A program made the translations under genes and the position numbers. Shown here piece after piece: positions 27,596 through 48,719 of a DNA stretch of 64,000 nt (the first letter of the stretch is position 1; each line of letters begins with the position of its first letter). Source of the stretch: Amoebidium appalachense (lineage: Eukaryota; Protista; Ichthyosporea); assembly GCA_963693365.1 (NCBI GenBank), contig CAVNZM010000008.1, forward strand, positions 9,794,293-9,858,292. Direction: 5' to 3'. Under the pieces are notes generated by a model. It searched no databases. It saw only the letters and a list, made by a program, of their open reading frames with translations, and had not been told where the DNA came from.

Positions 27596-28059
27596 GTTTG
27601 TTGTTTGGTGGGGGGGGGGGGGGGGGGAGGGGAAGGGGGGAAGCCCCCGCGGGTCCCCGGATGCAGGAGACAGAGTGAGGGCGAACAAAAACAAACAATA
27701 TAGGTGATTATGGAATGGCATGGAAATTGAGACCACACATGTGCAGAGGGAACGGGTGTTTTTGTTTTGTTTTTTCTTTCTTTCCCCCCCCCCCCCCCCC
27801 CCCCCCCCATCCCCCCCCCTCCCCCCCCCGCGGGTCCCCTGATGCAGGAGACAGAGTGAGGGCGAACAAAAACAAACAACATAGGTGATTATGGAATGGT
27901 ATGGAAATTGAGACCACACATGTGCAGAGGGAACGGGTGTTTTTGTTTTGTTTTTTCTTTCTTCCCCCCCCCCCCCCCCCGAAGTTACGGTATGTACTGC
28001 TTGAGAAAGTAGTATCGCAGAGAATGGCAGAGTGCGACTAACACAATGGTCCACTATAA

Positions 28060-28246
28060 ACTTCGCTATATGCGGGAACCTCCTTAGAACCCACGGGACT
28101 AGACAGGGATTTTCTTTTGTCAGTAAAACAACGTTGGTATTGGGAAATCCGCAGGAAACTAATTTAGATAAAATATCTATTAGTAGAATCCTCAGAGACT
28201 ACATGCGAAACAATCTGTTATACGTGCAGATTGGAGATATAGTCCG
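28060..28246 (+). ncRNA. Group I intron catalytic core (IB-like), probably an organelle- or plasmid-derived insert
   Basis: P ATGCGGGAAC (28070), Q AATCCGCAGG (28146), R TCAGAGACTACA (28192), S GAGATATAGTCC (28234) in canonical order. Pairings P3 TTCGC/GCGAA, P4 TGCGGG/TCCGCA, P6a ACTAAT..TAGATA/TATCTA..TTAGT, P7 GACTA/TAGTC and P8 CAATCTGT/GCAGATTG all form. Confidence 0.85.
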
Positions 28247-28247
28247 C

Positions 28248-28509
28248 TCTTTATATCTTTTACCAAAAGCTCTTACAACACTGGCCAGCTCGTTTGAATG
28301 TGAGGTACAAAAAGGATCTTTCCCACATGAATTATTTCAAAGCTCCAAAGTACATGACTTCAATTTTATAGGCGAATGACCAGCATATGAATATTATACA
28401 GATATAACACAAGAAGATTATAATAATATGAAACAGGATGTATGGAATTGTAAAGAAGAAACGTTGAAATATTTAGAAGGTGATTTAATATCGCTCTATC
28501 AAGTAATTG

Positions 28510-28510
<1 letters not shown>
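28248..28510 (+). pseudogene. Protein-primed DNA polymerase B (pPolB) exonuclease-region fragment
   Basis: SLYLLPKALTTLASSFECEVQKGSFPHELF...FIGE*PAYEYYTDITQEDY...WNCKEETLKYLEGDLISLYQVI fits the S-xx-LLP-xx-L-xx-LA-xx-F, KGxFP and ExoIII YxxxD-xx-SLYQV pattern of linear-plasmid/Polinton-type pPolB; one in-frame TGA at 28377; AT-rich. Confidence 0.8.
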
Positions 28511-29528: not shown

Positions 29529-31738
29529 TTACGCCGCAGATCGCACAAAACTAAACAGTTTCTTAATCGACTGTCTCCTCTCATGTCCCTTCTCCGGTGA
29601 GTGGCTCGGGGGGGACCCCATCCCAGCGTGCAGCCCGGATCCGTAGCCTCCCGCTATCCTCTGCTGATATTCCGGTGAATTTGTTTTCAAAATATAGTAA
29701 ATGGCGACCACGTGGTCACCGACCGACGCCACCGACGTGTCCGATGTCGACCTTAAACTCAGTCTTATGTCGTCATGACTGAACCCAAACGACTTAAGCT
29801 GCCTCACGGCATCATCCGAATCGATCAGCGACGGATCGGCCAATCCCGTGGGGTCCGGCGACGCCGCCACCGCAATTGTGCGATGTGATTGGGTGGGCCG
29901 GATAAAACTAGATCGCAACCTCTGGGGGAGGGTGGCCCAAGACCACTGGGGCCGGTCTAGCATCATCCACGGGTGGTGAAGGATCTCGTTTAAGGTAGGG
30001 CGGAGGTTGGGCTCGAATTGGAAGATTTGAGATAGGAGGCTGGCTGCTTCGTTGGTTAAGGCGGGAGGAGGGACATAGTGGTGCCATGTGCGTTGGTAAC
30101 GTTTCACCTCAAAGGGGAGAACGGCTGCGGGAAAGAGGGGAGGGTAAGAAAGCTGCAAACTCTTGATTGGATATGGAACACGGTGCAGGACATAAGAGGA
30201 TGTGCACAAAAGCGCGAAGAAGAAGGATGAAATCTATAGTGTATGACGCTTGTAGTGGTTTCTAGCAGGTGTGGGTATGCACTTGGGTGCGTGAGCGTGT
30301 GGTGTTTACTGCCTGCATCTACTTAACGTGCAAGACAAACCATCATCCACGTCTCTACATCTCAACAATGGGCAGACTAACGGACAAAGACCCCCCTCTC
30401 CCCCCCCCCCCCCTCCCCCTCCCTTTCCCCCCCATATCTCCTGCGCAACGAAATAGATACCTCTGCCCATGCCCAAAAAAGGACTCGATGCAAGGTTGCT
30501 ACGGCAAGCCCCCCCCCCCCCCCCCCCCCCACCCCTCTTCCCCCCTCCCCCCACCTCACGTCCCCACCTACAAGCATATTCGGTATTCCACTGTCACCCG
30601 ATTTCTCCATCCCACCCTCTTTACACTATTTCGTCTCATCTTCGACTACCCCTCTGCACGTCCTTTCCATACCCCTCCTCCTCCCTCCCTCTCTATATCC
30701 TAACAGAACCTCTTCTCCCCCTGGGCCCCCTCTTCTTTCCTTTGCCCCCTTCCCCCTTCCCCCCCCCCCCCCCCCCCCCCCCCCGTCCCCTTCCCCCCCC
30801 CTCCCCTCCCCCCCTCCCTCCCCCCCCCCCCCCCCCCCTCCTCGTCCCTGGATATTGTTCCACGTATTGAGTGTGTTCATACGCATAAAAGTAACCAAAA
30901 GAAAAAAATGGGATCCCCCCCATTCAGCGACCCATATTGCACGAAAAATTGCATGAAAAATGGCTCGTCCGTTGAACTCGACACTCTTCTTCTGCACCAA
31001 CACACCTGGCAACTATACACGTGCTTGAGTGCAACCCAAAGAGAAATTGAACTCACTGCCCACACGAGGTCGGCCACTATTCTTACCCGCCAGCATGGAA
31101 TGCAGAACAGCGCCCAGCGCCCACACCTCCGCAGGAGGGCCCAGGTATCCATTCCCGTTGTGCACATCGTACACCTCAGGGGCAGCAAACACCGCAGACC
31201 CAGTAGGTGACCACAAGGCCTCTGTCGCTGCATGACCAACAACAATAGAGAGCCCAAAATCGCACAGCTTCACGTTACCGCCAGCGTCGATAAGGACATT
31301 GGCGTTTTTAATGTCGCGCGAAATCACGTTTTTTTCGTGGCAAAACTGAACCGCCTGGACCAGCTGCCTGAACCAACGGCGTGCTGTGGGCTCATCCACA
31401 GGACCGTTATTGACGAGGTAGATGTGCAAATTGCTGCCGTTACAATATTCCATCACAATGTACATGTAGTTTTCATCTTCAAACACCTCGTACACGTGTA
31501 TAACGTGGGGATGGCCTCTGACCAAGCGAAGAGACGCGATTTCGTTTTCGAGTGTTGTCCTTTCCATTGTGAGTGATTTGTTAACGATTTTAACAGCAAC
31601 CTCCGCCCCCGTGAGTTTGTGTGTTGCCACATGGACGGCGGAGAAACAGCCCTGCCCTATCTGTGCGCCGAGTATGTAGTTATTGATGCCAGCAGTATTT
31701 AGTTGGCACTTCAGACAGTGTACGTTAGTCCCACACAT
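29529..31738 (-). CDS. AMPK-related (MARK/SIK-like, CAMK group) Ser/Thr kinase with UBA domain, 2 coding exons
   Basis: Exons 31738-31087 and 30124-29529 (G|GTAAGA ... CAG|CC, phase 1). GQGCFS, VAVK, RDIKNAN, DFG, AAPE, VWALG, RPTLNEILHHPW; UBA-like AVRQLKSFGFSHDDI...VAIYYIL. Confidence 0.92.
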
Positions 31739-32205
31739 TTTTGGTTTTTGGATGTACGCAAAGGCACCGGAAGAAAATATAGTAAATGTGTTTCTGGAAG
31801 AACAATAGGGTTAAGAAAAACGTTAACCTGTGTTTGTCGTCCCTCGTAACTGGTTAGCTAGCCAAAGTGCGAGCAGCCTTTGTTTTTAACAGGTAGTAAC
31901 TAAGGGTGTTTGTGTGTACAGTGACCAGCCCTTCGTATTCGGCAGGTCAAACTGAACGTTAACACGTGAAGAACTGAACGCATTCAAAAATATATTAGTC
32001 GAAATGTAACTGGTTTGCCTCAAAGTGGTGTGGTGTTGTTGTGTGCCTACGCCATGCCCGGAAAAACTGTACAAAGAAATCGTCCGAGCGTGGTAAATAC
32101 ACTCAAAAGTCCCCCTTCTACCCGCTACGCTCTAGGCAAGAAGTGAATGGGGTGAGTTGGCTTGTTCGAGTGTAAAGCCACCCCTAGATCTGGGACCGTT
32201 TCTCC

Positions 32206-32310: not shown

Positions 32311-33766
32311 AGTATCAGTAACCATTGCTTCGCATGGGAACAGAATCTTAGATCTCGAGCCACCAAAGCACAATATCTCAGTACAAGAATCCCATAAACC
32401 CAACAATAAAGGCATATGAGGTTTTATTGTTCTTTCTAAATTATCTCATAATATTAATCAACAAATACCTTACCTGTGTTCCATATGTACTCAATATTAC
32501 CGATAGGGAGGACATCCGCCCTGTGACCCTGCCCAAAGCCATAGATCTTATAGATTTGCCTGGATGCATCTGATTGGATCTTTGACCCGGCTTTCGCCGA
32601 CCAGGTGTGGGCGATCTGCCTAAGCTAGTGGTACATGGCGACACATGGGACGAAGGAACAAGAGGGAAAAAGGGGAACGAGGCACTTACAGTAGTGTGAG
32701 GGACGGTGACGGGACTCACACAGAGCTGCCGAGAGTCTGTATAGGGCCTGTGCTTGTAAGAGCGATGGCCGATCTGGCTGCCGTGAGCCGGGTGCGCCTG
32801 CCTATAACCCAGTGCGGCCGAGGTCACGTGATCTCGCTCGGGCATTCCCAACAGGGGAGTTAAGCTCGTCCCGAGCTCAAACCAGGAGGAAAAAAAAAAA
32901 GGGCGGCTAACAGAGTGACCAGCACACAGGGTATAAGGCAGCACCGAAAGTGGCAGTTATGTACAGGCATACTAGAATACAGACATGTGGCAGATATTAT
33001 GAGGTCCGTAGTAGCGATAGCGTAAGGGCTATGTGCGCAAGCCTATTGAAGCTATATTAGAGACCTATGCTAGGGCTAGCTATATATGAAAGAAAAAATG
33101 AACATGACGCTCTAGCTAGCGGCTAAAGCACAAGTAGCTAAGATGCTATTAAAGAACGTGCTAAAAGTAACTTAGTGTTATTTAATAATAAAGCCTTCAT
33201 GCATATAATATGTACAGGCACAAATTCATGCATACAACATGTGCAAATGAATTTTTCATTCGAAAATATAGTGTGTGTATACGTGTGTGTGTGTGTGTGT
33301 GTGTGTGTTTGTGCGTGTGTGTGTGTGAGTATGTGTGTGTGTGTGTGAGTGAGTGAGGGGAGCAGCTCGAGTGAGTAGCCAGGTTGGTACAGGGGTGGCC
33401 TTGCGAGATAGGGTGCTCGTGCACGTGCAAGTAGGCCTAGAAGCTTGGCGGCGGCGGGGGGGGGGGGGGGGGGGGGGGGAGGAAAGGAAAAAAGGAGGGG
33501 GGGAAGGGGGGGGGGGGGGGGGGGGGGGGGGGAACAGGAAATGAGGGGAAAGGCCTAGCGATTCGAGCGGCTCGAGTGAGTAGCCAACTCAGAAAGAGGT
33601 GGCCTTGCGAGGTAAGGCGCTTGGAAAAGAGAGGAGTGTATAATAAATAAATATGATTTTTTTTTTTTTTTTTTTTTAAAGGGTTGGGGACGGTAGGCAA
33701 TGGGTGCCTTCTGGTTACCAAGGGGGGGGGGGGGGGGGGGGGGGGGAATATCTTTTTATATTTCGA

Positions 33767-35406
33767 TCATGCGGTCATCCGGAAACCATGCGGGTTGACC
33801 GTTATGATCAGCGGCCAAGTAGTACAATCGGCCGTCAGGTGCATATGCCCATCCGGGGGAGATCCACGTATACGATAGTGGGGCGTGGATATTATGCGGG
33901 TAGGGTGCCAAGTTGGGCATATGGGGGTTCGGGTATGTATTTTGAGGGAGAACGTAAGGGATGTGGTGGGGAGGCGGGGGGGGGAAGGGGGGGGTAGTGG
34001 GGTTGGGGGTGGAGGGGGAGCGGCCTGCGTACTAGTAGGTACGGCTAGGCGGGGGGAGGGGAATGAGTCGGAGAGTGGGTAGAGTGGGTGGCTGGGCAGG
34101 CATAGCTTGAGGCATGAGGAGGGAGGGGGAGGGGGTTGTGGAAGATGTGTTGGAAGGGCAGGGTGAGGTTGAGGTTGAGGGGGAGGGGGGCGGAGGGAGG
34201 GGGCGTGCGGGAGGGAGGGGGTGGGGGTGGGGGTGGAGGGGGGGGGTGCCTGAACCACGAATTCTGCATCCTCAGGGAGATCTTCTTCTGCAAGTGGGTG
34301 TTGCCCAGGTGCGGGGGGATCTTGTGGTTGTGGGAGAGGTGGAAAGGGTAGGATAGCATCGTCCAAGGGGCGGTCATCTCGGTTGGTTTTAACCGATCGT
34401 GATGAACCGGAATTTTCATAAATTTACCGTGTGGAGTGACAGGCCAATCCGTGGTGAGGATCGCGGCCGGCGTGGCAGGTTGTGCATGATGCAACATAGA
34501 CTAAGTGGTGTATGTCGCTGTACATGGTCGGCCAATAGAAATGTTCGCGGATTTTCTGATAGGTTTTAGAAAATCCTAAGTGGCCACCAAGTACGCTTCA
34601 AGTATTTTACGTTTGAAACCGCGTGGTACCACGATTTGAAAGCTTGGTCCATGTGCTTGAGCACCCGGTCGGGTGCGTACAAAGACATGGTATAGGGTGT
34701 TGTTGTGCACGGTATAAGCGTCACGTTCAAGCACGAGACGGCGTGCGAGTTTATCATCCTCTGGTAGGATATTGTGCACCAAATAATCTATAATGGGGCG
34801 CACATCAGGGTCTGCGAGCTGTGCTTGTTGTAGCTCGGGTTTGGCTTAATGGTTTCGATATTGGGAACAATCGCGGAGACAAAGGGAGAGGATTGGTGGG
34901 GGAAAGAGGGGGACTCGGAGGGGGGCGGGGGGAGGGGAGGAGAGGAAAATCGAAGGATCGGGTGGGGGAGGGGTAGGGAAGGAGTTGGGGAGGGGCCATG
35001 TGACGGAATGGTCATGCGGGGAAGAGGGGGGTGGGGGGGCAGCGGGGGAAGGAGGGGAGGAGGAGGGGGGTACGAGGGGCCCGGGGCAGACACGAGAGGG
35101 ACAGCGGGGGGGAACTGCGCCTGCCTGGACAGTGCGTTTGGGACCACGTGAAGCTTGCCGGGCCTATGTACAACATCAATTTCGTATTCAGACAGCTGTA
35201 ACGCCCAGCGGGCTAGACGGCCACTGGCAGTCAGCTGCTCCGTTGATCATGAGGAACTGTAAAGCACAGTGTGGTCGGTAATCATAATAAAGCGATTACC
35301 GTAGACATAGGGGCGGAATTGTTGCATGGCATACAAACATGCAAGTGCTTCCAATTCTGTGGGCGCATAACTTTTTTCAGCGCCATGTAGTGCGCGGCTT
35401 GCGTAT
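33767..35406 (-). mobile_element. Degenerate Ty3/Gypsy pol remnant (RNase H, integrase zinc finger, C-terminal tail)
   Basis: YASRALHGAEKSYAPTELEALACLYAMQQFRPYVYGNRFIMITDH (35406-35270), VPNALSR, TYQKIREHFYWPTMYSDI...CTTC (~34565-34475), VHHDRLKP; frameshifts present, integrase DDE core missing. Confidence 0.85.
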
Positions 35407-35708
35407 TGATAATCTGCATAACCGGACAAATCGGTCCTAATAATGGCTAAAAAGGACAAAAGTGTCCTATCTTTTTCGGCGGCGTCGCTAAGCGTTGTTT
35501 TCGATAGGAAACACCCCACAAGCTGGGTATGGCCAATGAGGTCTAGTATTTTCCTGCCTTTTTTGTCTTTATAGGAAACCAATAGGACTGCAGGGTGAGT
35601 AGCTCTTGACGCGCAAAAGATCATGGGTGCAACCGTTTTCCCCCAGTTTTGGGGTGTCCGACTGTCCGATCACGGACACCATTTGGTTTCCGAACTAAAA
35701 GACACCGC

Positions 35709-36320
35709 TGTTGTATAATATGATCGTGTGTCTGTGACAAACAATATGTTTATAAATGAACGGGGTTGACTAGACCACGCTTTGCTTAGTTACGTGCTAG
35801 TCCTACTTACACCTAGTAAGCCGAGCACACTAAGTCCGCTCTGAAGCCCCCGACATGCCCTTATAACGGAGCTCGCACAGCGGCTCAGACATGCGCATCG
35901 GTATGTGCTTTTTGGCTACGAGAGCCAATCACATACGGTTCACGGTTCTGTCCCATGGCTATCACGGTTCCAATAAACCTATTGAGCCAATCGGGTGACA
36001 GTACTTGATTATCGATGCATTCCACAGTCATACCTCACGCGGCTACTTGCATATTTTCCCATGATAAAACTATAACTTAACGCTCATGGTTCCTCTGCTA
36101 CGTGTCGGTCCCATGTGGCTATTATATCTGTTTTCCCATGAATAATCCTGCAAGTTGCACGTGCACATACGTTTAACTCCATGCTCATGCGCACAAGACT
36201 GGGAGGGACATGCATACTGGCCTACCTAAGATCAAACACAGTGGTATATATACATGTACACGTGTGCGTATATCTCAACCTGTGTACATCCATACTAGAT
36301 ATCCGGTATAATATACCACA
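35709..36320 (-). repeat. 3' LTR
   Basis: No differences from 42801-43412 seen by eye; termini TGTTGTATA...TATACCACA. Confidence 0.97.
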
Positions 36321-36360
36321 CGCCCCACCGTAAAAAGAAGTATGTCGTCCTCGACATACG

Positions 36361-39300
36361 TCACCATGCTCCACACAATGAGTCAATGTATCCGTGGAAC
36401 GATGCAAGGTCACCTCTGCGTTGGTGGAACTCTCGGATCTTGTCCGGGCAGGCTAAGTCTTTCTCAGACTCCCAAGAGGTGAATGAATCATCTTTGCCTG
36501 CCCACTTGATCTGGTACCACTTGTAAGGGGTGGATTGCTTGCGCCGTTTCTGAATTCTTACGTCAAGCACCTTTTCCACCACCCACTCGTCCGGCAGAAC
36601 CTTGTTGAAGTTGTGACTATCGCCCGTGTCCGGGAGGTGAGAGAGATCTTGAGGCCGAATTCTATTTTGCTCACTCAATTCAAGCTGAATATCGTCCACG
36701 TGCCACTTAGATTTCTTCATAGTTGCTAAGCTTCGGATCTCGTACGTAACCGGGCCGACCCTTTTGACGATTTCGTAACCCGTAATCCACCGTACATCCC
36801 AGGCACCGATATTTTTGGCTTGATTCCGAACACGTATCCGTGCACCCTTCTCAAATTCACGAGCCACCGAGGGGCCTGGGGGCTCTTGTACGGCACGTTG
36901 CTGGACCACAGCACGGAGCAGAGGCAGACGGGCTAGTAACTCTCGCCGGTATGCCTTCCACTCTGGGTCCTTGAGTGCCGGGTGGTTACTGTTAAGAAGG
37001 GCAACGTCAGGGAATTGTGTTGCTTCTTGCCCGTACACAAGATAATACGGTGTACATTGCAAAATTTTGTGTGTTGTTGTGTTGTATGCATGTGTAACCA
37101 CCGGCAACAGAGTGTCCCAATTAGTGTGCTCATAATTAACGTACTTTGAGAGTGCATTATTAATAAATCTATGAGACCGTTCATTGGAACCGTTGCTTTG
37201 TGGGTGATATGCAGAGGTGCTCACTTGTGCAATATTTGCTATACGGCAAATCTCAATAATTAGCTCATTGAGAAATTCTGAACCCTGATCACTCAAGAGT
37301 GTACGAGGGGGGCCGTGTATATAGCAAATTACATTCATGAGTGCATGTGCAACATTAACGGCATGCTTAGATTGGATGGGCACAGTGATTAAATACTTCG
37401 TTGCCATATCCATAAACACACAAATGAAAGTATTACCATTTTTCGTTTCTGTGAACGGACCCATAAGGTCAACAGAAACACGAGAGAACATTTTTAAATT
37501 TTCGTATCTCTGTTCAAATGGCCTACTTCTCAAGTGTGGGTTATCGTTACGGCCTTGGCACTGTGTGCAGGCATTCACATAAGCAGTGATATCTTTGTGC
37601 ATGCGTGGCCAATAATAATTGTATAATCTTTCGTAAGTTCGTTCAATGCCAGTATGAGCCCCCCCGTCGTGCACACTTCTTAATAAATCAGCACGAAGGA
37701 TTTCGGGCACATACAGGCAACGACGACCATCCTTAGCCACATGATAAAGCACGTCATCCTCTATCACACACATTTGTGCTATTTTCTTAACCTTATTGTA
37801 TCCGAAATACTCAAGATTAAGACCGTGTGCAGCTCGTTCCCCCCCTGCCTGCCATTCCCGTTTGGCCTCGGCATCGAGGGAGGCAAGCCACCGTAGCCAC
37901 GTGATTATATCCTTACACATTTTGTCCCCCCCCTGTGCCATCATAATTGCTTCCTTCTGATAGCCGGCACCACCGAGTGCAGAAAGGGAGGGCAGGCCGG
38001 CTTGACTGAGTGCAGAAATTTGTGCACATTTCAAGCGGTCTGGATCGAAAATGTGTGTGAATTCGAGTGCATCGCCCCAATCAACAAACACTTCGGCTGG
38101 TTGCGAGCTAAGCTCGGATAAATCTGCTGTGAGAACCTCTTGTAATTCCTTTTTCACATCCCACCTTTCCAGTGTTATGTTTTCGTTCTCATGCAGAATA
38201 TATCCTATACGGCTTAACCCATCAGCATCGTGCATGGTAGGGCCAGGACGGTAGTATAGATCGAAATCATACTCCTGCATTTCCAAAGCCCACCGTTGCA
38301 TCCGTTCGTTTGCTATCCGTTTGACACCTTTAAGAGAAAGACAGGGCTTATGGTCACTTTCCACAATAGTATTTACTCGACCATACACGTACACCCTAAA
38401 CTCTTTCAGTGCCCAATAGATTGCATGCGTTTCTCGTTCGATGTTGCTCCACCTACGTTCGGTAGGTTGAAACATCCGGGAGGCATATGCCACCGTGCGG
38501 AACTTGCCATCATTTTGTTTTTGATACAGGCAAGCCCCTTCCGAGAACCGACTAGCATCACAACGAATAAGAAACTGACCCCCCGTGGGGGAAAGATCGG
38601 GCAGGGCAAGCACTTCCTCCGATAACGCCGATTTTAAATCTTTAAACGAGCGATCTAATTCGTCCGTCCATTTTAACCGTCGGTGTTTTTCTCCGTAACA
38701 CTCGGCATTCATGGGTCGGGCTCGCTCTGCATAATTTAAAATGTGACGGCGGAGATAGGAAGTAATACCCAGAAAACCCCGGAGTTGGTGTAGTGTGTTT
38801 GGTACCGGCCAATCTTTCACTGCCTGAACCTTTTTCGGGTCGGGCCGAATGCCATTCACACCTACAATCCAACCCAAAAACGGTATTTCCGTTAGCCCAA
38901 TATATGTCTTTGCCCCATCGAGCTTAACACCATATTCACCGAGACGGGTGAAAAGTCGGTCAAGCTTCTGTATTAATTCTGTTTCGGTGTGTGCACCCAC
39001 AGCTAAATCATCGGCATATATCACCACATCATCGGCCAGCGGGGCCAAAATCTGTGTCATGATAGATGCTAGCTGGGACGGGGAAGTACTGAGCCCCTGT
39101 GGTGCCACACAATAACGATACTGCACACCAGCCACAGAAAATCCTGTTTTTTCACGTGACTCAGCGTCTAGCAGTATTTGGTAAAAGGCACCCGACATAT
39201 CAGCTTTACAGAAATACTTATACCCAGCCAACTTCTCTATTTGTTGTTGCAAGTTGGGCATGGGCCAGGCAGATTTTCGAATTTGCTTGTTAATAGCACG

Positions 39301-39759
39301 AAAATCAGTCAGCAGACGGTATTTTCCGTTTGGTTTTCGTATTACGAAGGTGGGTGAATTATACTGACTGTGTGCTTGTTCCATCTGCCCTCTATGACAC
39401 ATATCCTCCACGATCTCCTTTGCAGCCTGCTCTTTCACTTGTTCCAACCTCCACTGTTTTAATCGAATCGGTGTGTTATCTCCCGTGTCTATGTGCATGG
39501 TGAATCCTTTAATCTGAGGAAATTCGTCGGGGTCCGTAGTGGTGAAGCAACGAGAGTGTGCTTCTAATAGTTTCTTAACCTCCGGAAGCATACTCTGAGG
39601 CACCCTATTCCAATCAAAACCGTGGGGAGCCTGGCCGGCATCGTGTGCACCCCCACCCGAAATTTCCGAAATCAAATTTTCGCGGGGGGGGTTTTTCATG
39701 ATCAACGGCACACATTGATTGGTCGATCGGTGAGTGTATCGGACCGCCTCGTGTCCCAC
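36361..39759 (-). CDS. pol: Pol: reverse transcriptase, RNase H, integrase, chromodomain
   Basis: RT (LTDFRAIN, PQGLSTSP, YADD), RNase H (CDAS, ESDH, DADGLSR), integrase HHCC + SVDLMGP / SDQGSEF / NERSH, C-terminal chromodomain EWVVEKVLD...YQIKWAGKDDSFTSWESEKDL. Probably entered by frameshift rather than own ATG. Confidence 0.96.
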   Translation of the reverse strand: MGHEAVRYTHRSTNQCVPLIMKNPPRENLISEISGGGAHDAGQAPHGFDWNRVPQSMLPEVKKLLEAHSRCFTTTDPDEFPQIKGFTMHIDTGDNTPIRLKQWRLEQVKEQAAKEIVEDMCHRGQMEQAHSQYNSPTFVIRKPNGKYRLLTDFRAINKQIRKSAWPMPNLQQQIEKLAGYKYFCKADMSGAFYQILLDAESREKTGFSVAGVQYRYCVAPQGLSTSPSQLASIMTQILAPLADDVVIYADDLAVGAHTETELIQKLDRLFTRLGEYGVKLDGAKTYIGLTEIPFLGWIVGVNGIRPDPKKVQAVKDWPVPNTLHQLRGFLGITSYLRRHILNYAERARPMNAECYGEKHRRLKWTDELDRSFKDLKSALSEEVLALPDLSPTGGQFLIRCDASRFSEGACLYQKQNDGKFRTVAYASRMFQPTERRWSNIERETHAIYWALKEFRVYVYGRVNTIVESDHKPCLSLKGVKRIANERMQRWALEMQEYDFDLYYRPGPTMHDADGLSRIGYILHENENITLERWDVKKELQEVLTADLSELSSQPAEVFVDWGDALEFTHIFDPDRLKCAQISALSQAGLPSLSALGGAGYQKEAIMMAQGGDKMCKDIITWLRWLASLDAEAKREWQAGGERAAHGLNLEYFGYNKVKKIAQMCVIEDDVLYHVAKDGRRCLYVPEILRADLLRSVHDGGAHTGIERTYERLYNYYWPRMHKDITAYVNACTQCQGRNDNPHLRSRPFEQRYENLKMFSRVSVDLMGPFTETKNGNTFICVFMDMATKYLITVPIQSKHAVNVAHALMNVICYIHGPPRTLLSDQGSEFLNELIIEICRIANIAQVSTSAYHPQSNGSNERSHRFINNALSKYVNYEHTNWDTLLPVVTHAYNTTTHKILQCTPYYLVYGQEATQFPDVALLNSNHPALKDPEWKAYRRELLARLPLLRAVVQQRAVQEPPGPSVAREFEKGARIRVRNQAKNIGAWDVRWITGYEIVKRVGPVTYEIRSLATMKKSKWHVDDIQLELSEQNRIRPQDLSHLPDTGDSHNFNKVLPDEWVVEKVLDVRIQKRRKQSTPYKWYQIKWAGKDDSFTSWESEKDLACPDKIREFHQRRGDLASFHGYIDSLCGAW

Positions 39760-40858
39760 TCACATGCCCTTCGTGCCCACACATGTTATCGGTAGGCACC
39801 CGGCCCGGTGGCACGGCCGGAGGTGAATTGGGTAGGCAACCTTCTCCACCCCCCGTTGCCCACCTGATGCACTGCGCTATTGCACCAACGACGGTTTGTG
39901 TACGACTGGGGTGGGGTTCGGCTTGCAAAACACTCAGTTCGTGTATGTACTCATGTCGGCTCGTAGGAACGAAATGACCGATGGTACCGAACACGTTCAA
40001 ATCCGGACCCACACCATTTTCGCACACAACAGCAATAGATTTATCCACACTAAGTTCACAGATGGTGGGGGGGAACTTATCTCGAAATTCACGAGTAGGC
40101 TCGAAGATACCGAGGGTGCCAGCAGCAGCAGCAGCAGCAGTCACCTGCACCGTTGCACGTAAGACACATCCAAAGCCAGATTTGACGGTGGTGTCGTGCT
40201 TGACGGTAACAGGACACATTGTGTAGGGGGTGTGCAAAGATGACGTCGGCACCACCATCCCCGACACCAGTGTTAGTGAGTGTGCTTGATGATTAGTGGT
40301 GGCAATGTGTTTGTTGGCAAAATCGTTCCCAATAATCATGTCATGCTTAATATTTTTAATTACTAAGCAAGGCCACATGAATGTTTGAGAACCGAGGCAT
40401 AACGGGAGCATCACTTCACCACTCACAGCTAGAGCTTTATCGTTTTTTCTTACAGAAGTAACAATAACATCCGAGGGTTGCAAAGCAAACTCCTGCATGT
40501 GTCGGGAAAAAACAGCTTCACTAACCACCGTGAATGATGCCCCAGTGTCAAACAATGCAAAGTATTTTTCATTACTCAACGTAACATTAACATAGATACG
40601 TCTTCCTGCATTGCATATGGCACTTATATCGAACACTTTTCTTATTCTATCGAGTGTTCGAAGTTTCTTTGTGGGGGGGGATAGGTGTGGGGGGGTGGGG
40701 GGTCGGGGGTCGGGGGAAGGGGGCTCGGAGGGGGGAATATCAGAAGAAGCCGGGGCAGAAGCACATGGTATAGGCACATTTTTAATTACTTTTTCGTGAC
40801 CCACTGGGTCACAATGTGCAATACATGCCGTATTCGTGCTTCCAGCACCGGCAATTAC
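39614..40858 (-). CDS. pro: Aspartic protease ORF (pro)
   Basis: ALFDTGASFTVV and DMIIGNDF; open in the gag frame immediately after the gag TAG. Confidence 0.9.
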   Translation of the reverse strand, partial: VIAGAGSTNTACIAHCDPVGHEKVIKNVPIPCASAPASSDIPPSEPPSPDPRPPTPPHLSPPTKKLRTLDRIRKVFDISAICNAGRRIYVNVTLSNEKYFALFDTGASFTVVSEAVFSRHMQEFALQPSDVIVTSVRKNDKALAVSGEVMLPLCLGSQTFMWPCLVIKNIKHDMIIGNDFANKHIATTNHQAHSLTLVSGMVVPTSSLHTPYTMCPVTVKHDTTVKSGFGCVLRATVQVTAAAAAAGTLGIFEPTREFRDKFPPTICELSVDKSIAVVCENGVGPDLNVFGTIGHFVPTSRHEYIHELSVLQAEPHPSRTQTVVGAIAQCIRWATGGGEGCLPNSPPAVPPGRVPTDNMCGHEGHVSGTRGGPIHSPIDQSMCAVDHEKPPPRKFDFGNFGWGCTRCRPGSPRF

Positions 40859-42736
40859 CTATTTATCACTTTGCTTGCCCTTCTTCTTGGCAGCTCGGGT
40901 GGGGCAATCTTTAAAACGATGCCCCGGCTGCTTGCAAGCCCAACAATTGGGCCCCCTCTTATCTTTCTTATTTTCCTTAGCCCATTTGCCCCCCCCATTA
41001 GATTTACCCTTACCACCAACATTACCCCCACTACCTCCGTGGCCACCCCCGTGACCACCACCACCACCACCATGCCCCCCACTACCACCACCCATCTCAT
41101 CTACAGCACCCACATTACGGTTACATTTTAAATTGTGAGCACCCACATCAGCCTCATACCGTCGGATGACACGGCCCATGGCTTGTTTGAGGGTGGTTGC
41201 AGCCCGGGCCTCGGAACAAAGGTCCGGGTAGTCGTTGAGGGTACGTTGGTAATGATGAAGCACAACCTCGGGCATGTCCTTGAGACCCGAGTTGGAGATG
41301 ATGCAATTAAATTTCTTGTGGAATGTCTTTATCGAGGCCCGAGTGTGCATAAAACGAAGCTTGTTCAGCTCGTTAAAATGCTCCTCCTTACGTTCCTTGT
41401 CTAAATACTTCTCAAGGAACTTAGCCCAAAAATCGTCGATGCCGGTGCACGTGGAAAGGTCGACGTTGTCGGCAGCATCTCGGGGGTCCCCGGGGCCCAT
41501 GCACATACGAATAAACATCAACGTGCGATTTAAGCCCACCAACTCCATAATACAAAAGAAAATTAAATGATGTTGGAGTTGTTTGTAGAATTCGTCGATA
41601 TCGGCATCTGCCTCGAGCATAGGACGGGACTGAATTGCTGCTGAGGGGATGTGTTGTATCTTTTCCTTCCCCTCCCGGTCGTCACCGTTGCCGTCGTTAC
41701 CGTCACCGTCATCACCACCGTCACCGTCGTCGCCACCACCATCACCACCACCGTTAGCACCTCCGGCACCATTAGCACCACCGGCACCACCGTCAGCACC
41801 ACCGTCCGGGGGAGGTGGGGGGCCACCGCCACCTGCATTACCATCCCCATTTTCGTTGGCAGCAGGAGGGGGGTTGTTATGCCCCCCCCGGCCACCACCA
41901 CGTCCACCCCTACCACCACGGCCAGAGTTCTTACGGGGGCCCCGTCCGGCACGAACCCACGAGGGGAGCATGCTTGGATGAAATTTTCGAGGGCCCCGGT
42001 TACCATAATAAGTAACCACTAGGTCGAGCTCACCACGACTAAGAGTCACTAATTGATTGATAAATTCATGTGACTTAGTGATGGGGGAAGACTGCCCTGA
42101 AAGGCACGCGTAGTTTTGCCTGGAAGTGAATACATTCGCGAGGGCGAGTAGTTGTTGGTGGAGCAAGGTGAGTGCCGTCGACGAACGGTACAGTGCCGTG
42201 CGCGCTGTACAGCTGGCAAACTTCGATACCAAAAATGCCAGCAGCACGAACAGAAGGAGACACCCAAGAACGCACCAGCACCAAGCTGCCAGGCTCACGC
42301 CCGTCTTGTTGTGCAAATTTGCATACTCCGTTAGGGCGCGTATGAGGGCGTCTGGTGCCTCGGCTTGCGTTTGCGTTGACCTCGACATATAGCCCGTGGA
42401 GAAGGTCGACTGATGAATGTCGATTGTCTTCAGGTGGCAAGTCTTCGGGGTCAAATGATTGGCCGTAGTCGGTTTCCCCTGAATGAAAAGAGAAGCAGTA
42501 TTGATTGTCGTGTTGCAAGTCGTGTGAACGGAAGTAGACACGGTCGAGCAACGGAAGGTCTGCTCCAGGAGGGTGCCACGGTGAAGAGCCGGGGGGGGAA
42601 AGGGGAACATTATAGCCGAGTTCTTCCAGGAAAATGATGTCGGCGTTTCTAGCTTCCCCCCCATGCAGGCCACTAGGGCCGGCATTGTTGTCACCAAAGT
42701 GGTTAGACATGTTAGGACCCAAACAACTAAAAACAT
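40859..42736 (-). CDS. gag: Gag (625 aa from first ATG after the PBS) with N-terminal hydrophobic/TM extension and CCHC zinc knuckle
   Basis: CWACKQPGHRFKDC knuckle, capsid-like FWAKFLEKYL...LNKLRF...SIKTFHKKF, Gly-rich linkers. Confidence 0.88.
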   Translation of the reverse strand: MFLVVWVLTCLTTLVTTMPALVACMGGKLETPTSFSWKNSAIMFPFPPPALHRGTLLEQTFRCSTVSTSVHTTCNTTINTASLFIQGKPTTANHLTPKTCHLKTIDIHQSTFSTGYMSRSTQTQAEAPDALIRALTEYANLHNKTGVSLAAWCWCVLGCLLLFVLLAFLVSKFASCTARTALYRSSTALTLLHQQLLALANVFTSRQNYACLSGQSSPITKSHEFINQLVTLSRGELDLVVTYYGNRGPRKFHPSMLPSWVRAGRGPRKNSGRGGRGGRGGGRGGHNNPPPAANENGDGNAGGGGPPPPPDGGADGGAGGANGAGGANGGGDGGGDDGDGGDDGDGNDGNGDDREGKEKIQHIPSAAIQSRPMLEADADIDEFYKQLQHHLIFFCIMELVGLNRTLMFIRMCMGPGDPRDAADNVDLSTCTGIDDFWAKFLEKYLDKERKEEHFNELNKLRFMHTRASIKTFHKKFNCIISNSGLKDMPEVVLHHYQRTLNDYPDLCSEARAATTLKQAMGRVIRRYEADVGAHNLKCNRNVGAVDEMGGGSGGHGGGGGGHGGGHGGSGGNVGGKGKSNGGGKWAKENKKDKRGPNCWACKQPGHRFKDCPTRAAKKKGKQSDK

Positions 42737-42800
42737 AGTACTTGCTTGATACGAGCACACTTGCAGCACAAGAACAGCGCTGCAGGGGGTGTAGCTCAGC

Positions 42801-43412
42801 TGTTGTATAATATGATCGTGTGTCTGTGACAAACAATATGTTTATAAATGAACGGGGTTGACTAGACCACGCTTTGCTTAGTTACGTGCTAGTCCTACTT
42901 ACACCTAGTAAGCCGAGCACACTAAGTCCGCTCTGAAGCCCCCGACATGCCCTTATAACGGAGCTCGCACAGCGGCTCAGACATGCGCATCGGTATGTGC
43001 TTTTTGGCTACGAGAGCCAATCACATACGGTTCACGGTTCTGTCCCATGGCTATCACGGTTCCAATAAACCTATTGAGCCAATCGGGTGACAGTACTTGA
43101 TTATCGATGCATTCCACAGTCATACCTCACGCGGCTACTTGCATATTTTCCCATGATAAAACTATAACTTAACGCTCATGGTTCCTCTGCTACGTGTCGG
43201 TCCCATGTGGCTATTATATCTGTTTTCCCATGAATAATCCTGCAAGTTGCACGTGCACATACGTTTAACTCCATGCTCATGCGCACAAGACTGGGAGGGA
43301 CATGCATACTGGCCTACCTAAGATCAAACACAGTGGTATATATACATGTACACGTGTGCGTATATCTCAACCTGTGTACATCCATACTAGATATCCGGTA
43401 TAATATACCACA
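42801..43412 (-). repeat. 5' LTR (TATA-like TTATAAG on minus strand at ~42952-42958)
   Basis: Same length and sequence as 35709-36320. Confidence 0.97.
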
Positions 43413-43482
43413 ACCGCATGATAGTGTGCGCGCTAGAAAACAAAAAGAACAAGGTAGAACTTCGGCAGAAAAAAAAAAGAAA

Positions 43483-44093
43483 ATGGTTAGGCGTTTAAGG
43501 AAAGACCAGAGAGTTTGGGTTTTTGCACGCATCTTTGATGGTAAAGCCAGGAACGATGATGAAAGTTGGAGTAAAGAGCAGTTTGGTGAAGAATGGGAAA
43601 CGAAACAGCTCACAGGCACAACTGTGCAAGTATTAAAGAACAACCCACCTTTGCTGGGTTAGTCGGTATGGTGTTTGTAAACACCTACCTGGCCTACAAT
43701 CATTTCATAACAGACGGGGACAAGAATGCACTTTCAAACGAGCAGTGGCGCCAAAAACTTGCGGGTGAACTTGAACTTCTCAACAACCCACTTCTGCAAG
43801 CCGGCAAACAAAGCACGCGCATACTAAAATCGCTGTCAACAAACACCACAACCGCCAAACGAAGCAACCTCTGTCACCCGGTGCTTATCGGTTCCGGCAA
43901 GCGGCCCGACAGTCACTGTGTTATGTGCGCGCGCACGGATCAAAAGGGATGCAAGCGCAGCAGGGTGAGCTGGATGTGCAGCAGGTGCGGTGTGGCATTG
44001 TGCTACAAAAATTCAGATCGCAACTGCTACGAGCTGCACCTGGAAAAGGGGGTGCCTGTACGCCACCGCAGAACCAAAGAGCAGGAGCAGTAG
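43483..44093 (+). pseudogene. Internally deleted piggyBac-like transposase, copy 1 (5' flank 35580-35708 split off by the LTR element)
   Basis: FAGLVGMVFVNTYLAY...WRQKLAGEL and C-terminal Cys-rich domain CVMC...CSRCGVALC...CYELH; N-terminus joined directly to the C-terminal part at ~43645, DDD core absent. Confidence 0.8.
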
Positions 44094-44113
44094 GTGTGAG
44101 AGAGAGAGGAGGT

Positions 44114-44148
<35 letters not shown>

Positions 44149-44710
44149 GGGGGGGGGGGGGACGTAAAGTTGCAGACTTTGCAGACTGCTTTGGGTTTGT
44201 GATCTCGAGCATACCTTTCGTGGGGTATAAGTTTCCTTTATTTTGTCTTTCTATTATAGAAGGGACTGGAACTAGTAGCAACAAGTGTATTCTCTAGCTA
44301 GCAGCACATAGTGGTCTTAGCCGCTCCAGAAACACACAATGAAGGCTATTTTTTAGTTTAAATTAAAATTTAGCGGAAAAACCACGTGTTTTCTTAGAAG
44401 GTCGCCAACTTCGATCGGATGCAAAAAACCCGACCACCTAATCTTAATTCTGAGGCAACCTACCTAACTAAGGTCCAACTTAGGGCACTTTTATCGAGAA
44501 AACCTTAGCCACACTGTCCCTGTTACCACCCGATCTACTTCTAATATTATGTTTACGACTTTTCTTCAATTTTCTGGCTAGTTAATGAGGAAAGTAAGTA
44601 CAAAAGCTTTTTAAGGCCTGGTTACTATGCAACTGCGCTAGAAATAGCGCGATCGTCTAAAAATAGGTTAATTACGACAAAAGTGTCCGAATAGATCTGT
44701 GCGAATTATC

Positions 44711-47600
44711 AATAGGACTGCAGAGTGAGTAGCTTTTGGCGCGCAAAAGATCATGGGTGCAACCGTTTTCCCCCAGTTTTGGGGTGTCCGACTGTCCGAT
44801 CTCGGACACCGTTTGGTTTCCGAACTAAAAGACACCTCATGATAGTTTGTGCGCTAGAAAACAAAAAGAACAAGGTAGAATTAGGGTAGAAATAGGTGAA
44901 AAGAAAAGAAAATGGTTAGGCGTCTAAAGAAACTTTGACCAGAGAGTTTGGGTTTTTGCACGCATCTTTGATGGTAAAGTCAGGAACGATGATGAACGTT
45001 GGAGTAAAGAGCAGTTTGGTGAAGAATGGGAAACGAAACAGCTCACAGGCACAACTGTGCAACGTGAAGTGTTAACCCTACTAACCCGAGTGGGCCATAT
45101 ATATGTTTTCAAGAGGTGCTGGTTGGGCGGAAAAGGCTCAAAAGTATGGAAAAAGCTGTGTCCAAGTATTATGTGATGACATAGAAACGTTTTCTAACAG
45201 CTTTAGCCATGTTTATACGCCTCTTTTTATTTTTCTATAGGACCCTTTTTCTATATAACTGAGTTCCGGAAGCGTGCTTTCGGATTTTCGAAAGCCATCA
45301 TGAACAACCATGTGCGAGCGAGGGATGTGTGTGATTGGCTCAGCATGAAAGTGCGAGCTAAGAAATCGATTGGCCAAATGGTTGATTAGCAGCTCATTAG
45401 CTTTGGCGTCACTGCGGCAACGTGTGATAAGCACTAGCGCACATGTACACGCCCTTTCCACTCGCATCATGCATGCCATTTTGCGAGATCACAAAAGGCG
45501 TATGTATTGTACATGTTTTTAATACGTAAATCAGGGGCGTGCTGTATTCTGACTCTTTGTTTCGTGTTTCGTGTGTAGGGGCATGCCCCTATATCTCTAC
45601 ATTTCCTAAATTCTTTTTCGTGGCCTGCAAGCTGTTGATTGGGTCGCGGGAGCAGGTCTTCCACATGTAAGATGCTGATGTAGACGTCATGCCTGTACGT
45701 ACGTACGCGTAGCTGGCGCGACGCTAGCGCTACGCACAACGGTAGTGTCGTGGAGCTCAATTTTATACCCTAAGTTGCTTCTATAAAGAAAATGAAGTTT
45801 AGTAAAGGTGTTTGCATTATATGTGTGGATTTCGTCCGCAACCTTCAAGGTTTGCCCAATTGCACGTGGCTTGCAACGAAATCTTATAGAGGGAAAACTA
45901 TCTTGACCGAGGCATTTGCCAACGATACATAAATGGCCCAGCGCTGCAAATGAGGGAACATAGTATACGTATACCTGTGTATACCTCGTACGTAAAGTAC
46001 AAAACTCTCCCGTGTCATACGTACATCCCTACGTACATGTTGCAAACGTCTACGTATACGTATATACAGTATGGATGCGCTTTGTAGGTCCGGGGCGAAT
46101 CGGCCGCCCCTACCAACCGAGGCCTGGGCATGGGAACGTGTACTGAGCGAGATCAGCCTGGAGAAAGCTAGCCGTGATAATGGACAAATCCGACAAGAGA
46201 CCGCCAGTTTCACGGCAGTCTAAGGCGTCTTTAGTTGCAAAATACCTCACCTATAATAGTTACATGTGGTAATGCTATAAATATTTTTATAAATTTATGT
46301 TTTTGTATAAAAATAATGAGCAGTTTACGCTATATAATGGGACAACCACGAAAAGCAGGCAACAAACAAATTGGCCGCATTCGCGTTACGTACTCTGATG
46401 ACCAATGATATTGGCGCCTTACACGAGCACACGAACTCGCCATTGCCGAAACGGCTTCCTTCTCCGGTTGTCTGAAATCTCTGTGCTATATGAAAACCAT
46501 GTTTTCTCTTTTTGGTTTTTTTTTACGGATTTACAGAAGTCCTTTGGGGTTTATAACTGTTGTTTCCGCATGACAGTAAAGTTACGTGTGCGATTGCTTC
46601 TGGATGCTCAATAGGATAGCTTCAACACTCAATAGATGGGACCTTCAAATGGACGTGAGTGCATGCATGCATTTGGCATCTTTTGTATCAGTCTTATCAG
46701 CGATGTAAAGGTGTACATTTTTGCCTCCCGTGCTCTTCAGTCACGTTATCCCAAGGCTGCGCAGCTGAAAAGACGGTTTACTTTATTTTCACCGGTGTTC
46801 CGCCAGTTTTCGGATCATTTCGCGGACTTGACCTCGCTTGAGGTATACGCCTACAGGCGCATGTAGGCCGTCGCTCTGGTCAAAACAAGTTGGGATCCCA
46901 TCGACAAACTCACATGGCAAGCTCATCGCGATCTATCCCTGGAAAGAGCCGATAAAATCGACCAATCTGGATCGCTCGAAGTCTGGGAACATTTTTGTCC
47001 CATCATCGATTGCGCTCGGATTCCTAGGGTTAAAGAACAATAAATGGTTGGTACACATAGACTACGACGGGAAAGTAGAAGAAGTACCACGGAGCGAGAT
47101 TCAGCTAGTTGTGGGATGTGCTAAGGCGTACTAGTATATAGACCTTTTTATTGGGGGGACTCCGAGGGGGGAGGGGGGGGGGGAGGGGGGGCAGGGGGCT
47201 CGCCCTCTCCCTCTCCCCCCATACGTTGGCAGGATAAGGATTTCAGCATGCGTGTAGTAACGACAGCAGGAAGTACGGAAGCAGGAGCTCCCCGTATCAC
47301 AAAAAACGGTACACAAGTGCCCAAGCCAAAAGCAGTGCACGAATACTTCACATATTTCAACAGTGCAGACGTACACAACAAACTCTGGCAAGGGAACAGT
47401 TCACTTGAGCAGGCATGGGCCCCCCACTACACCCTGGCACAGCACCTTTGCTGGGTTAGTTGGTATGGTGTTTGTAAACACCTACCTGGCCTACAAGCAT
47501 TTCATTGCAGACGGGGACAAAAAAACACTTTCAAACGAGCAGTGGCGCGAAAAACTTGCGGGTGAACTTCTCAGCAACCCACTTCTGCAAGCCGGGGCAA
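44711..47600 (+). mobile_element. piggyBac-like element remnant, copy 2 (interrupted by 45076-47029)
   Basis: 44711-45060 matches 35580-35708 + 43418-43628; 47248-47600 encodes PKPKAVHEYFTYFNSADVHNKLWQGNSSLEQAW then (frameshift) FAGLVGMVFVNTYLAY. Confidence 0.78.
45076..47029. mobile_element. Non-autonomous piggyBac-type element with TTAA TSD
   Basis: TTAA|CCCTACTAACCCGAGTG ... CGCTCGGATTCCTAGGG|TTAA (imperfect TIR); removal restores ...TTAAAGAACAA as seen uninterrupted in copy 1 at ~43633. Confidence 0.82.
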
Positions 47601-48719
47601 ACAAAGCGCTTTGGTTGAGTCTCCACGAGCAACAACAAAACACACCTATCTCCATTAAGGTGTCTCATGTTTCGTATGAATTTCACCCTTCGGCTGCTTC
47701 AGTTATCGCTAATTTCCGTGCTCGTGTTTAGTTCACCGACGAGAACGCCGGTCTTTTTTCGGCCCCGGGGGTACTGTTATGGAACATTTACTGCTCCAAA
47801 ATAAACGATCATAGCACCAGGACGTGTGTCCGCCATTGCACGATCATGCTAATAATAGTATATTATGTAAACACGTGTGATTATCATGTGCAGATCACCA
47901 AGTGTCACTCTTGACATGTGACACTCGCGTCCACACGGCGTCCATATCATGTTTTGGCACGCGCAGTTCAATGATCTGCGTGCGGCGGTATCCCGCCGGC
48001 AGGCGACTGCGCACGTCACTATATTGTGCATCGAATGTACATCAAGAGATTGAGGTAGACGGGCTCCGTGATTGGACTAGCAATTTAGCTGTCCAGATCA
48101 GGCTCGGGTAAGTGAGTAACGGTTGGCTGAGATCCCCAACAATTGTTGTCACACAATTCAAAGTTTGCCATGGGAGATCTGAAGGTATAAACAGCACACG
48201 CAAGCAAGACCAGTTCACCAGTTCATCATCACTTCTTCAAGACAAGTACTTCAGCTACAGATCAAAGTGTGCTGTGCCGCTGTTACTAAGGTTGACACCT
48301 ATACTGGTGCTTCATCAACCCGCTCTACCATACAACACATGTTTTTTTCCTTCTCTCTACCCTTTATTTCTAGCAAGGCTACGGCTGCGCTCTACCCCTC
48401 TGGCCGCTTATGCTATTGTAAGGGTCCTTTTGGCTGTAGCTGCCTAGCTCGCCACACGTGTGCTTGGTGCCCCGACCCTAGACGGTTGGAGCAGCCACCG
48501 ACGACGGTGCCCTGAGTCTAAACACCTCGGGCTACCTAATAGTATGCACACTTACACACACCACACCACGAACCACCACATATATACATCAGCGTAAATG
48601 TCCTGCACCACAGTTCAAAGGCCCGCAAGCGCTGTGACACCCAGACGCATCATCCTTCATTTCTGTTATCCGGAGAACCCGAGGTCGGCAGTCATACTTT
48701 TCCTAAGGTGTTGCCTCCG

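Follow-up and report, generated by a model that had tools for sequence, protein, structure and literature searches.

Three types of primer were distinguished in a plant-wide survey, namely, a whole tRNA, a half tRNA cut at the anticodon, and a self-primer (PMC6317226). The truncated tRNA primers described in the available text of that survey and of PMC10886601 all belong to the Ty1/copia superfamily and are all cut at the anticodon; the elements using them include copia, Ty5, Osser, Bryco, Bianca, and the fungal Helenus, and the primers end in the anticodon arm. In Tf1, the element RNA's initial 11 bases pair with the primer-binding site, and the cut by RNase H falls behind them (PMC7175516, PMC4600332, as far as their available text goes). 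GalEa elements, which are fungal members of Ty1/copia, lack a classical site and have a Conserved Hairpin Site right behind the 5' LTR, formed through a downstream near-complement (PMC5445492). The dictyostelid Skipper elements carry a chromodomain and a CCHC Gag and have no TGG-type site, and the accessible part of PMC5006619 leaves their priming mode open.

We analyzed a 64-kb stretch of DNA, here called the window, that contains a chromodomain-bearing Ty3/gypsy retrotransposon whose putative primer-binding site is the complement of a tRNA 5' end. Like the half-tRNA Ty1/copia elements, it would use a 3'-truncated tRNA lying beside the LTR rather than a CCA end; unlike them, it belongs to Ty3/gypsy, and its match covers tRNA nt 1 to 15, with a putative end in the D-loop. 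It shares with the Tf1/sushi group (Tf1, Tj1, and Tcn1) a chromodomain integrase, a site that abuts the LTR, and a 5'-terminal RNA segment that would pair there and need cutting free, and an 11-bp pairing of the site to its own predicted RNA start is possible. It differs from that group in that the self pairing is imperfect, the tRNA match is perfect, and the site is four bases longer, and a quick tree built without Tf1 placed the element apart from the chromoviruses of fungi and plants that were sampled. The GalEa hairpin is likewise located directly behind the 5' LTR and formed by a downstream near-complement, but it is built on a palindromic 9-mer, has no tRNA match reported in the available text, and belongs to the other superfamily (PMC5445492). 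Skipper shares the chromodomain, the CCHC Gag, and the lack of a TGG-type site with the element studied here but differs in a degenerate polypyrimidine stretch for which no complement is found in the LTR (PMC5006619), whereas the site here is of mixed sequence with five C at its end. No Skipper sequence was present in the tree. The layout of Skipper-1, in which gag, a stop codon, pro, a frameshift, and pol follow one another, resembles that of the element here. Kojima's Troyka gypsy lineage is said to have an unusual truncated-tRNA site.

Structure of the element

The retrotransposon occupies 7,704 bp (35709-43412) on the - strand. Its two 612-bp LTRs were identical and had TG...CA termini, and the insertion was flanked by a 5-bp target duplication (ACCGC on the + strand). 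The flanking repeat recurs at about 44710-45060, and there the insertion site was seen without the element. The features used below, from the 5' end of the element to its 3' end, are as follows.

43413..43417, no strand: right copy of the target-site duplication; the left copy is 35704-35708
42801..43412, - strand: 5' LTR, 612 bp, TG...CA
42952..42957, - strand: TATA-like element TATAAG, 34 nt upstream of the predicted RNA start; a promoter by its position, presumably
42911..42923, - strand: initiator-like 5' end predicted for the RNA, with a neighboring variant at 42924; may act as a self-primer or as a strand that occludes the site
42785..42800, - strand: putative primer-binding site, complementary to nt 1-15 of the tRNA (to 1-16 should base 16 of the host tRNA be C), 0 to 2 nt from the LTR end
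42762..42784, - strand: inner stem-loop of 8 bp immediately behind the site; the listed variants fall in its loop or preserve its pairs
42752..42761, - strand: exact second copy, in the leader, of the RNA-start 10-mer; closes a hairpin that is predicted to cover site positions 4-12
40859..42841, - strand: gag frame, with a long hydrophobic N-terminal part and a CCHC knuckle close to its end; terminated by a single TAG
39614..40858, - strand: protease frame, beyond the TAG and in the same frame as gag
36361..39759, - strand: pol frame with RT, RNase H, integrase, and chromodomain; in a different frame and overlapping the protease frame
36321..36331, - strand: short G-rich run that precedes the 3' LTR and, by its position, would act as the polypurine tract
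35709..36320, - strand: 3' LTR, 100% the same as the 5' LTR

The Pfam domain order was PR-RT-RH-IN, which is that of Ty3/gypsy, and the integrase lay downstream of RT-RH, which is not the arrangement of the Ty1/copia superfamily. The pair of LTRs with TG...CA ends and the target-site duplication agree with a Ty3/gypsy LTR retrotransposon, and the best relative of solved structure was Ty3 Gag-Pol (E 9e-74).

Several features of the coding region were noted in addition. About 146 nt (39614-39759, - strand) belong to both the protease and the pol frame, which are read in different frames. In four close relatives, protease and RT share one frame, and the frame break here may therefore belong to this copy alone or stem from the assembly; alternatively, it may reflect a programmed +1 shift. 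A stem was predicted 3' of the single TAG that ends gag. The leader holds two overlapping open frames of more than 200 codons each (42075-42881 and 41974-42841, - strand). Neither was given an assignment by Pfam or the Atlas, the second frame reaching an Atlas score of only 0.76, and when variants were sorted by codon position, 8 versus 7 of 19 were synonymous in the two frames. The gag frame starts with hydrophobic sequence and has a strong transmembrane-like stretch near 42250-42300, which suggests a membrane-anchored extension of the predicted Gag protein.

The primer-binding site and its variation

The motif GGGGGTGTAGCTCAGC is located on the + strand at 42785-42800, and the TG of the 5' LTR begins at 42801. 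Since the element lies on the - strand, its RNA bears the complement of this motif right behind the LTR, in the orientation expected for a primer. An earlier note on this DNA had stated that there was no TGG-type site next to the 5' LTR and that the motif equaled nt 1 to 15 of tRNA-Ala from its first position. Both statements held: no TGG-type site was found near the LTR, the first TGG in the leader being at position 80, which speaks against canonical priming from a tRNA 3' end, and the 15-mer is identical to nt 1-15 of tRNA-Ala fragments printed in the available text of PMC3653858 and PMC7515703. The isotype is less certain than the match. The same start is common to human Cys and Val isodecoders, and Ala is the likely but not certain source of the 15-mer. 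The motif was unique in the window, even when its first 10 bases alone were used. Given base composition, the 15-mer would be expected by chance at 9e-10 per site; this rises to 3.7e-7 when 100 tRNA 5' ends and four spacers are allowed for and to 2e-5 when any tRNA offset is permitted.

The match was also compared with a set of 135 distinct tRNA genes taken from fetched loci and mostly prokaryotic. Within this set, every match of at least 9 nt to the site began at nt 1-8 of the tRNA, and no complementarity to the end of an anticodon arm, as in the copia/Ty5 type of half-tRNA priming, was seen. Seven of the 135 (5 Ala and 2 Asp) started with one of the two forms GGGGG or GGGGA, a count that is biased because the loci had been fetched using the motif itself. 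Fragments of tRNA-Ala that end in the D-loop do occur in nature, since the most abundant tRNA-derived fragment in Schistosoma eggs is a 19-nt 5' tRNA-Ala fragment with the same start (PMC3653858, in its available text).

Other readings of the motif were tried and rejected. A split site of the Ty3 type was discarded since the element showed no sequence complementary to an Ala-type 3' end, as was a Pol III promoter, for which no B-box was found. No tRNA genes were found in the window, and an Rfam search over 35000-44500 returned nothing relevant.

Variation at the site was followed in contigs of four public runs (X3, X6, X9, and X20) aligned to 42300-43500; the depths given are not copy numbers. 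In X6, the deepest contig over the junction (record 21, 42717-42829) departed by one letter and one gap, neither of them within the site, and accounted for a depth of 843.5 of the 1083.7 at 42789. Among the listed variants, the only change within the site was G to A at 42789. It reached 186.4 of 1083.7 in X6 and 41.1 of 41.1 in X20, compared to 0 of 19.5 in X3 and 0 of 189.9 in X9, and was thus seen in two of the four runs, both under one species label. The X20 contig had 16 differences over 158 bases (12 of the 16 are listed), and conservation within the family was seen up to the roughly 10% divergence of this contig. Part of the element was present in 20 of the 24 public runs that were listed, with five organism labels among them.

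The G-to-A change turns the site into a GGGGA start, which is printed as a tRNA fragment in the available text of PMC12025293 and was carried by five tRNA-Ala genes of the fetched loci. Alternation of the site between two tRNA starts would be expected under priming by tRNA, and the single listed variant would give this prediction thin support. Both internal pairings described below tolerate the change too. None of the listed variants shifted the site toward the complement of the RNA start. In HIV-1, the primer serves as the template from which the primer-binding site is copied anew, and the site returns to matching the primer in use (PMC13191261, in the part available). Because plus-strand synthesis re-copies the site from the primer, the site should match the true primer perfectly; the site here matches a published tRNA start perfectly and the predicted RNA start imperfectly.

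Internal pairing and candidate primers

The mechanism proposed in the earlier note overlooked that the site can also pair with the element's own predicted RNA start and with a copy of it in the leader. The best duplex between site and LTR involved LTR positions 489-500, 34 nt behind the TATA-like element, where nt 2-12 of the predicted RNA and site positions 1-12 formed 11 bp (-17.7 kcal/mol), including one G-U and interrupted by one bulge. Shuffled sequences reached this energy in 33 of 300 cases when the whole LTR was shuffled and in 20 of 5000 when shuffling was local. The predicted start is initiator-like, and in most other copies the likeness is improved by the base at 42924. Outside the two LTRs, the RNA-start 10-mer occurred in the window only as the leader copy at 42761-42752. 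The predicted hairpin that begins at the LTR end had a z score of -2.2, equaled by 5 of 200 shuffles; it was left undisturbed by all six listed substitutions and one insertion, which came mostly from one contig and included no two-sided change.

When the RNA was folded at 11 cut lengths, the share of the pairing ensemble taken by the RNA start varied from 0.14 to 0.98, and the two internal partners jointly covered the site at 0.75 or more in all 11. C13 to C16 were unpaired at 0.74 or more in eight of the 11, and the last four C of the site are beyond the reach of either internal copy. A tRNA-type duplex was predicted at -28.6, -31.3, and -34.5 kcal/mol for 14, 15, and 16 nt, compared to the -17.7 of the self duplex, with a net gain of -18 to -24 upon co-folding.

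From these sequence comparisons, we consider it likely that minus-strand DNA synthesis is primed by the first 14 to 16 nt of a host tRNA, probably tRNA-Ala. This reading is the best supported because the match is exact, starts from nt 1, and abuts the LTR and because the variant equals a second published tRNA start. The proposal of the earlier note, that the primer is a 5' tRNA fragment ending in the D-loop, is thus kept, but its length of 16-18 nt is shortened to 14-16: nt 17-18 would overlap the terminal CA of the LTR, as judged from the scheme of reverse transcription. In the fuller form toward which we lean, the internal copies would occlude the site and leave a CCCC toehold. In the free RNA, an internal near-complement is predicted to cover site positions 1-12, with the last four C open. 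The 5' GGGG of the tRNA would bind this open CCCC and displace the internal strand, and cleavage of the tRNA in its D-loop, before or after annealing, would leave a 3' OH at nt 14-16. Any pairing past nt 16, up to nt 18, would be only an extra prior to the cut. The nuclease that we would guess at first is the element's own RNase H, which yields a 3' OH and would act much as in Tf1 but on a separate RNA; a host enzyme followed by end healing is the alternative. Plus-strand synthesis would then copy the fragment up to its first base, and the match would for this reason stop exactly at tRNA position 1 and track tRNA variants.

The pairing with the predicted RNA start raises the question of Tf1-type self-priming, in which the first 11-12 nt of the element RNA would fold onto the site, RNase H would cut behind them, and the match to a tRNA would have been left behind by a primer used earlier. 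The duplex is in register with the LTR end, is the best that the LTR offers, lies 34 nt past the TATA-like element, and was seldom equaled by local shuffles; the improved initiator-like sequence of most other copies points the same way. The Tf1 primer is itself 11 nt long (PMC7175516), and Tj1, for which a self-primer is predicted, likewise has a stop codon behind gag, as is the case here (PMC4600332; both in their available text). However, perfect complementarity is described as necessary for Tf1 in the available part of PMC5445492, whereas the first 11 or so nt here include a bulge and a G-U and their start is predicted rather than mapped. Whole-LTR shuffles reached the same energy somewhere much more often than local ones, the leader bears the identical 10-mer where no role as a 5' end is possible, and the ensemble share of the RNA start is unstable with cut length. 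Self-priming also leaves the last four C and the exact tRNA match unexplained, and the position of the element outside the plant/fungal chromovirus clade, in a tree without Tf1, may argue against it as well. Under regular self-priming, moreover, the RNA-start complement should have been written over the site, and the site matches a tRNA instead. We regard this explanation as unlikely. The same overwriting argument, and the lack of such a variant among those listed, weighs against the idea that both routes are in use or that the lineage is in the midst of a switch between a cis primer, its own RNA start, and a trans primer, the tRNA 5' end, the two being alike by chance. Each match is improbable by chance and each ends at the LTR boundary, and the two routes share a geometry in which a 5'-terminal RNA segment lies on the site and the rest is cut away; even so, we find such dual use rather improbable.

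The hairpin bears on a further possibility, that the motif is an accessory site for an intact tRNA or a regulatory 5' fragment and that priming starts from the leader hairpin, or from an unseen site. The stability of the hairpin relative to shuffles, its survival of every listed substitution and the insertion, and the replacement of the site by a hairpin in GalEa elements (PMC5445492, in its available text) would fit this. On the other hand, copying of a primer would produce just this position, this orientation, and a stop exactly at tRNA nt 1; the hairpin variants come mainly from one contig without any two-sided change, the site is not palindromic as in GalEa, and no B-box was found that would fit a Pol III reading of the motif. 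We therefore give an accessory role very little credence. That the resemblance to a tRNA arose by chance is scarcely credible at this position, given the figure of 3.7e-7 and a variant that likewise equals a tRNA start, even though a looser pattern was found in 78 metagenome stretches, none with a reverse transcriptase match, which means that, in collections of great size, the motif does turn up in other places.

If priming by the 5' end of a tRNA is true, a fragment of 14-16 nt would form a fourth primer class beside the three given in the available text of PMC6317226 and would be the first truncated tRNA primer for Ty3/gypsy within the literature examined. It would bridge self-priming and tRNA priming mechanistically, it would make 5' tRNA fragments substrates of retrotransposition and not merely inhibitors, and the abundant 5' tRNA-Ala fragments that end in the D-loop would gain a role in promoting transposition. 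The pipeline of PMC13524379, as its available text describes it, uses the last 12 nt of tRNAs and assigned 1151 of 1512 elements. Pipelines limited to 3' ends would score elements of the present kind as lacking a site, and a rescan with 5' ends could therefore explain some unassigned elements, possibly Skipper-like ones. A much broader proposal, that an entire undescribed Ty3/gypsy clade uses the D-loop-ended 5' end of a host tRNA, freed in trans by its own RNase H through a strand-exchange switch with two decoy strands and a CCCC toehold, is possible but doubtful.

Relatives and other features of the window

The closest database proteins were unnamed, with 41-44% identity over RT-RH. Word-indexed protein searches gave relatives over the whole Pol at only about 22-36% identity and at most 47% over short stretches. 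A quick RT-RH tree was built from 57 rows chosen from 232 (the window, 31 close matches, and 25 named or chromodomain-bearing sequences); two more named rows had been removed for short coverage, and Tf1, Ty3, and Skipper were absent. The element was placed in a clade of 9 rows (SH-aLRT 99), outside a plant/fungal clade of 17 rows (100).

Further cases were sought in the literature and in sequence collections. The literature search covered full texts and supplements, with subscription papers, Repbase reports, and figures beyond its scope, and found no site complementary to tRNA nt 1-15; the available text of PMC4007536, PMC6875170, and PMC13524379 contains no case of a site for the 5' end of a tRNA. 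A second element with a primer site was not found in the window. The motif followed by an LTR-like TG was found at 14 viral loci, mostly tRNA genes or chance occurrences and none with an RT match, and a protein-based scan of viral loci gave one weak locus. When viral candidates were scanned with the clade alignment, 0 of 64 encoded a relative. None of 78 metagenome loci with the pattern matched the element's proteins or the fetched gypsy proteins. In one metagenome contig (L047, 1660-1682), whose DNA is of low complexity and eukaryote-like, the identical 16-mer precedes TGT; the spacing was equal, but no element was recognizable and the contig was not counted. Another locus (L086, - strand, near 358-380) had a tRNA-Ala-like 5' end within tandem repeats. 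Fifteen contigs filed under bacterial metagenome-assembled genomes (L094-L108) encoded gypsy-type Pol, and none of the 15 was best matched by a member of the clade. Two of these (L099 and L101) had clear LTR pairs and TGG-type sites, and the set is probably eukaryotic contamination.

The window holds other repeats and coding sequences. Beside the intact element, a second, decayed gypsy element (33700-35480, - strand) retains remnants of RNase H and of the integrase zinc finger; it is split by the repeat that the intact element entered, and its 5' end and primer site are missing. A repeat that carries a cysteine-rich frame is present in nested copies at 43413-44093, 44710-45062, and 47443-47607. 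This frame had no Pfam match, and we take it to resemble the C-terminal domain of piggyBac-type transposases. Divergent Ser/Thr kinase frames (29529-31810, - strand) had unnamed closest proteins of 46-56% identity, and an AT-rich coding-like insert at 27960-28510, between copies of a 115-bp repeat, differed in composition from its surroundings. The stretch at 47770-48340 (+ strand) has a TATA-like element and shares its last 8 bases with the end of the LTR, to which it does not align; it is possibly a solo LTR of a different family.
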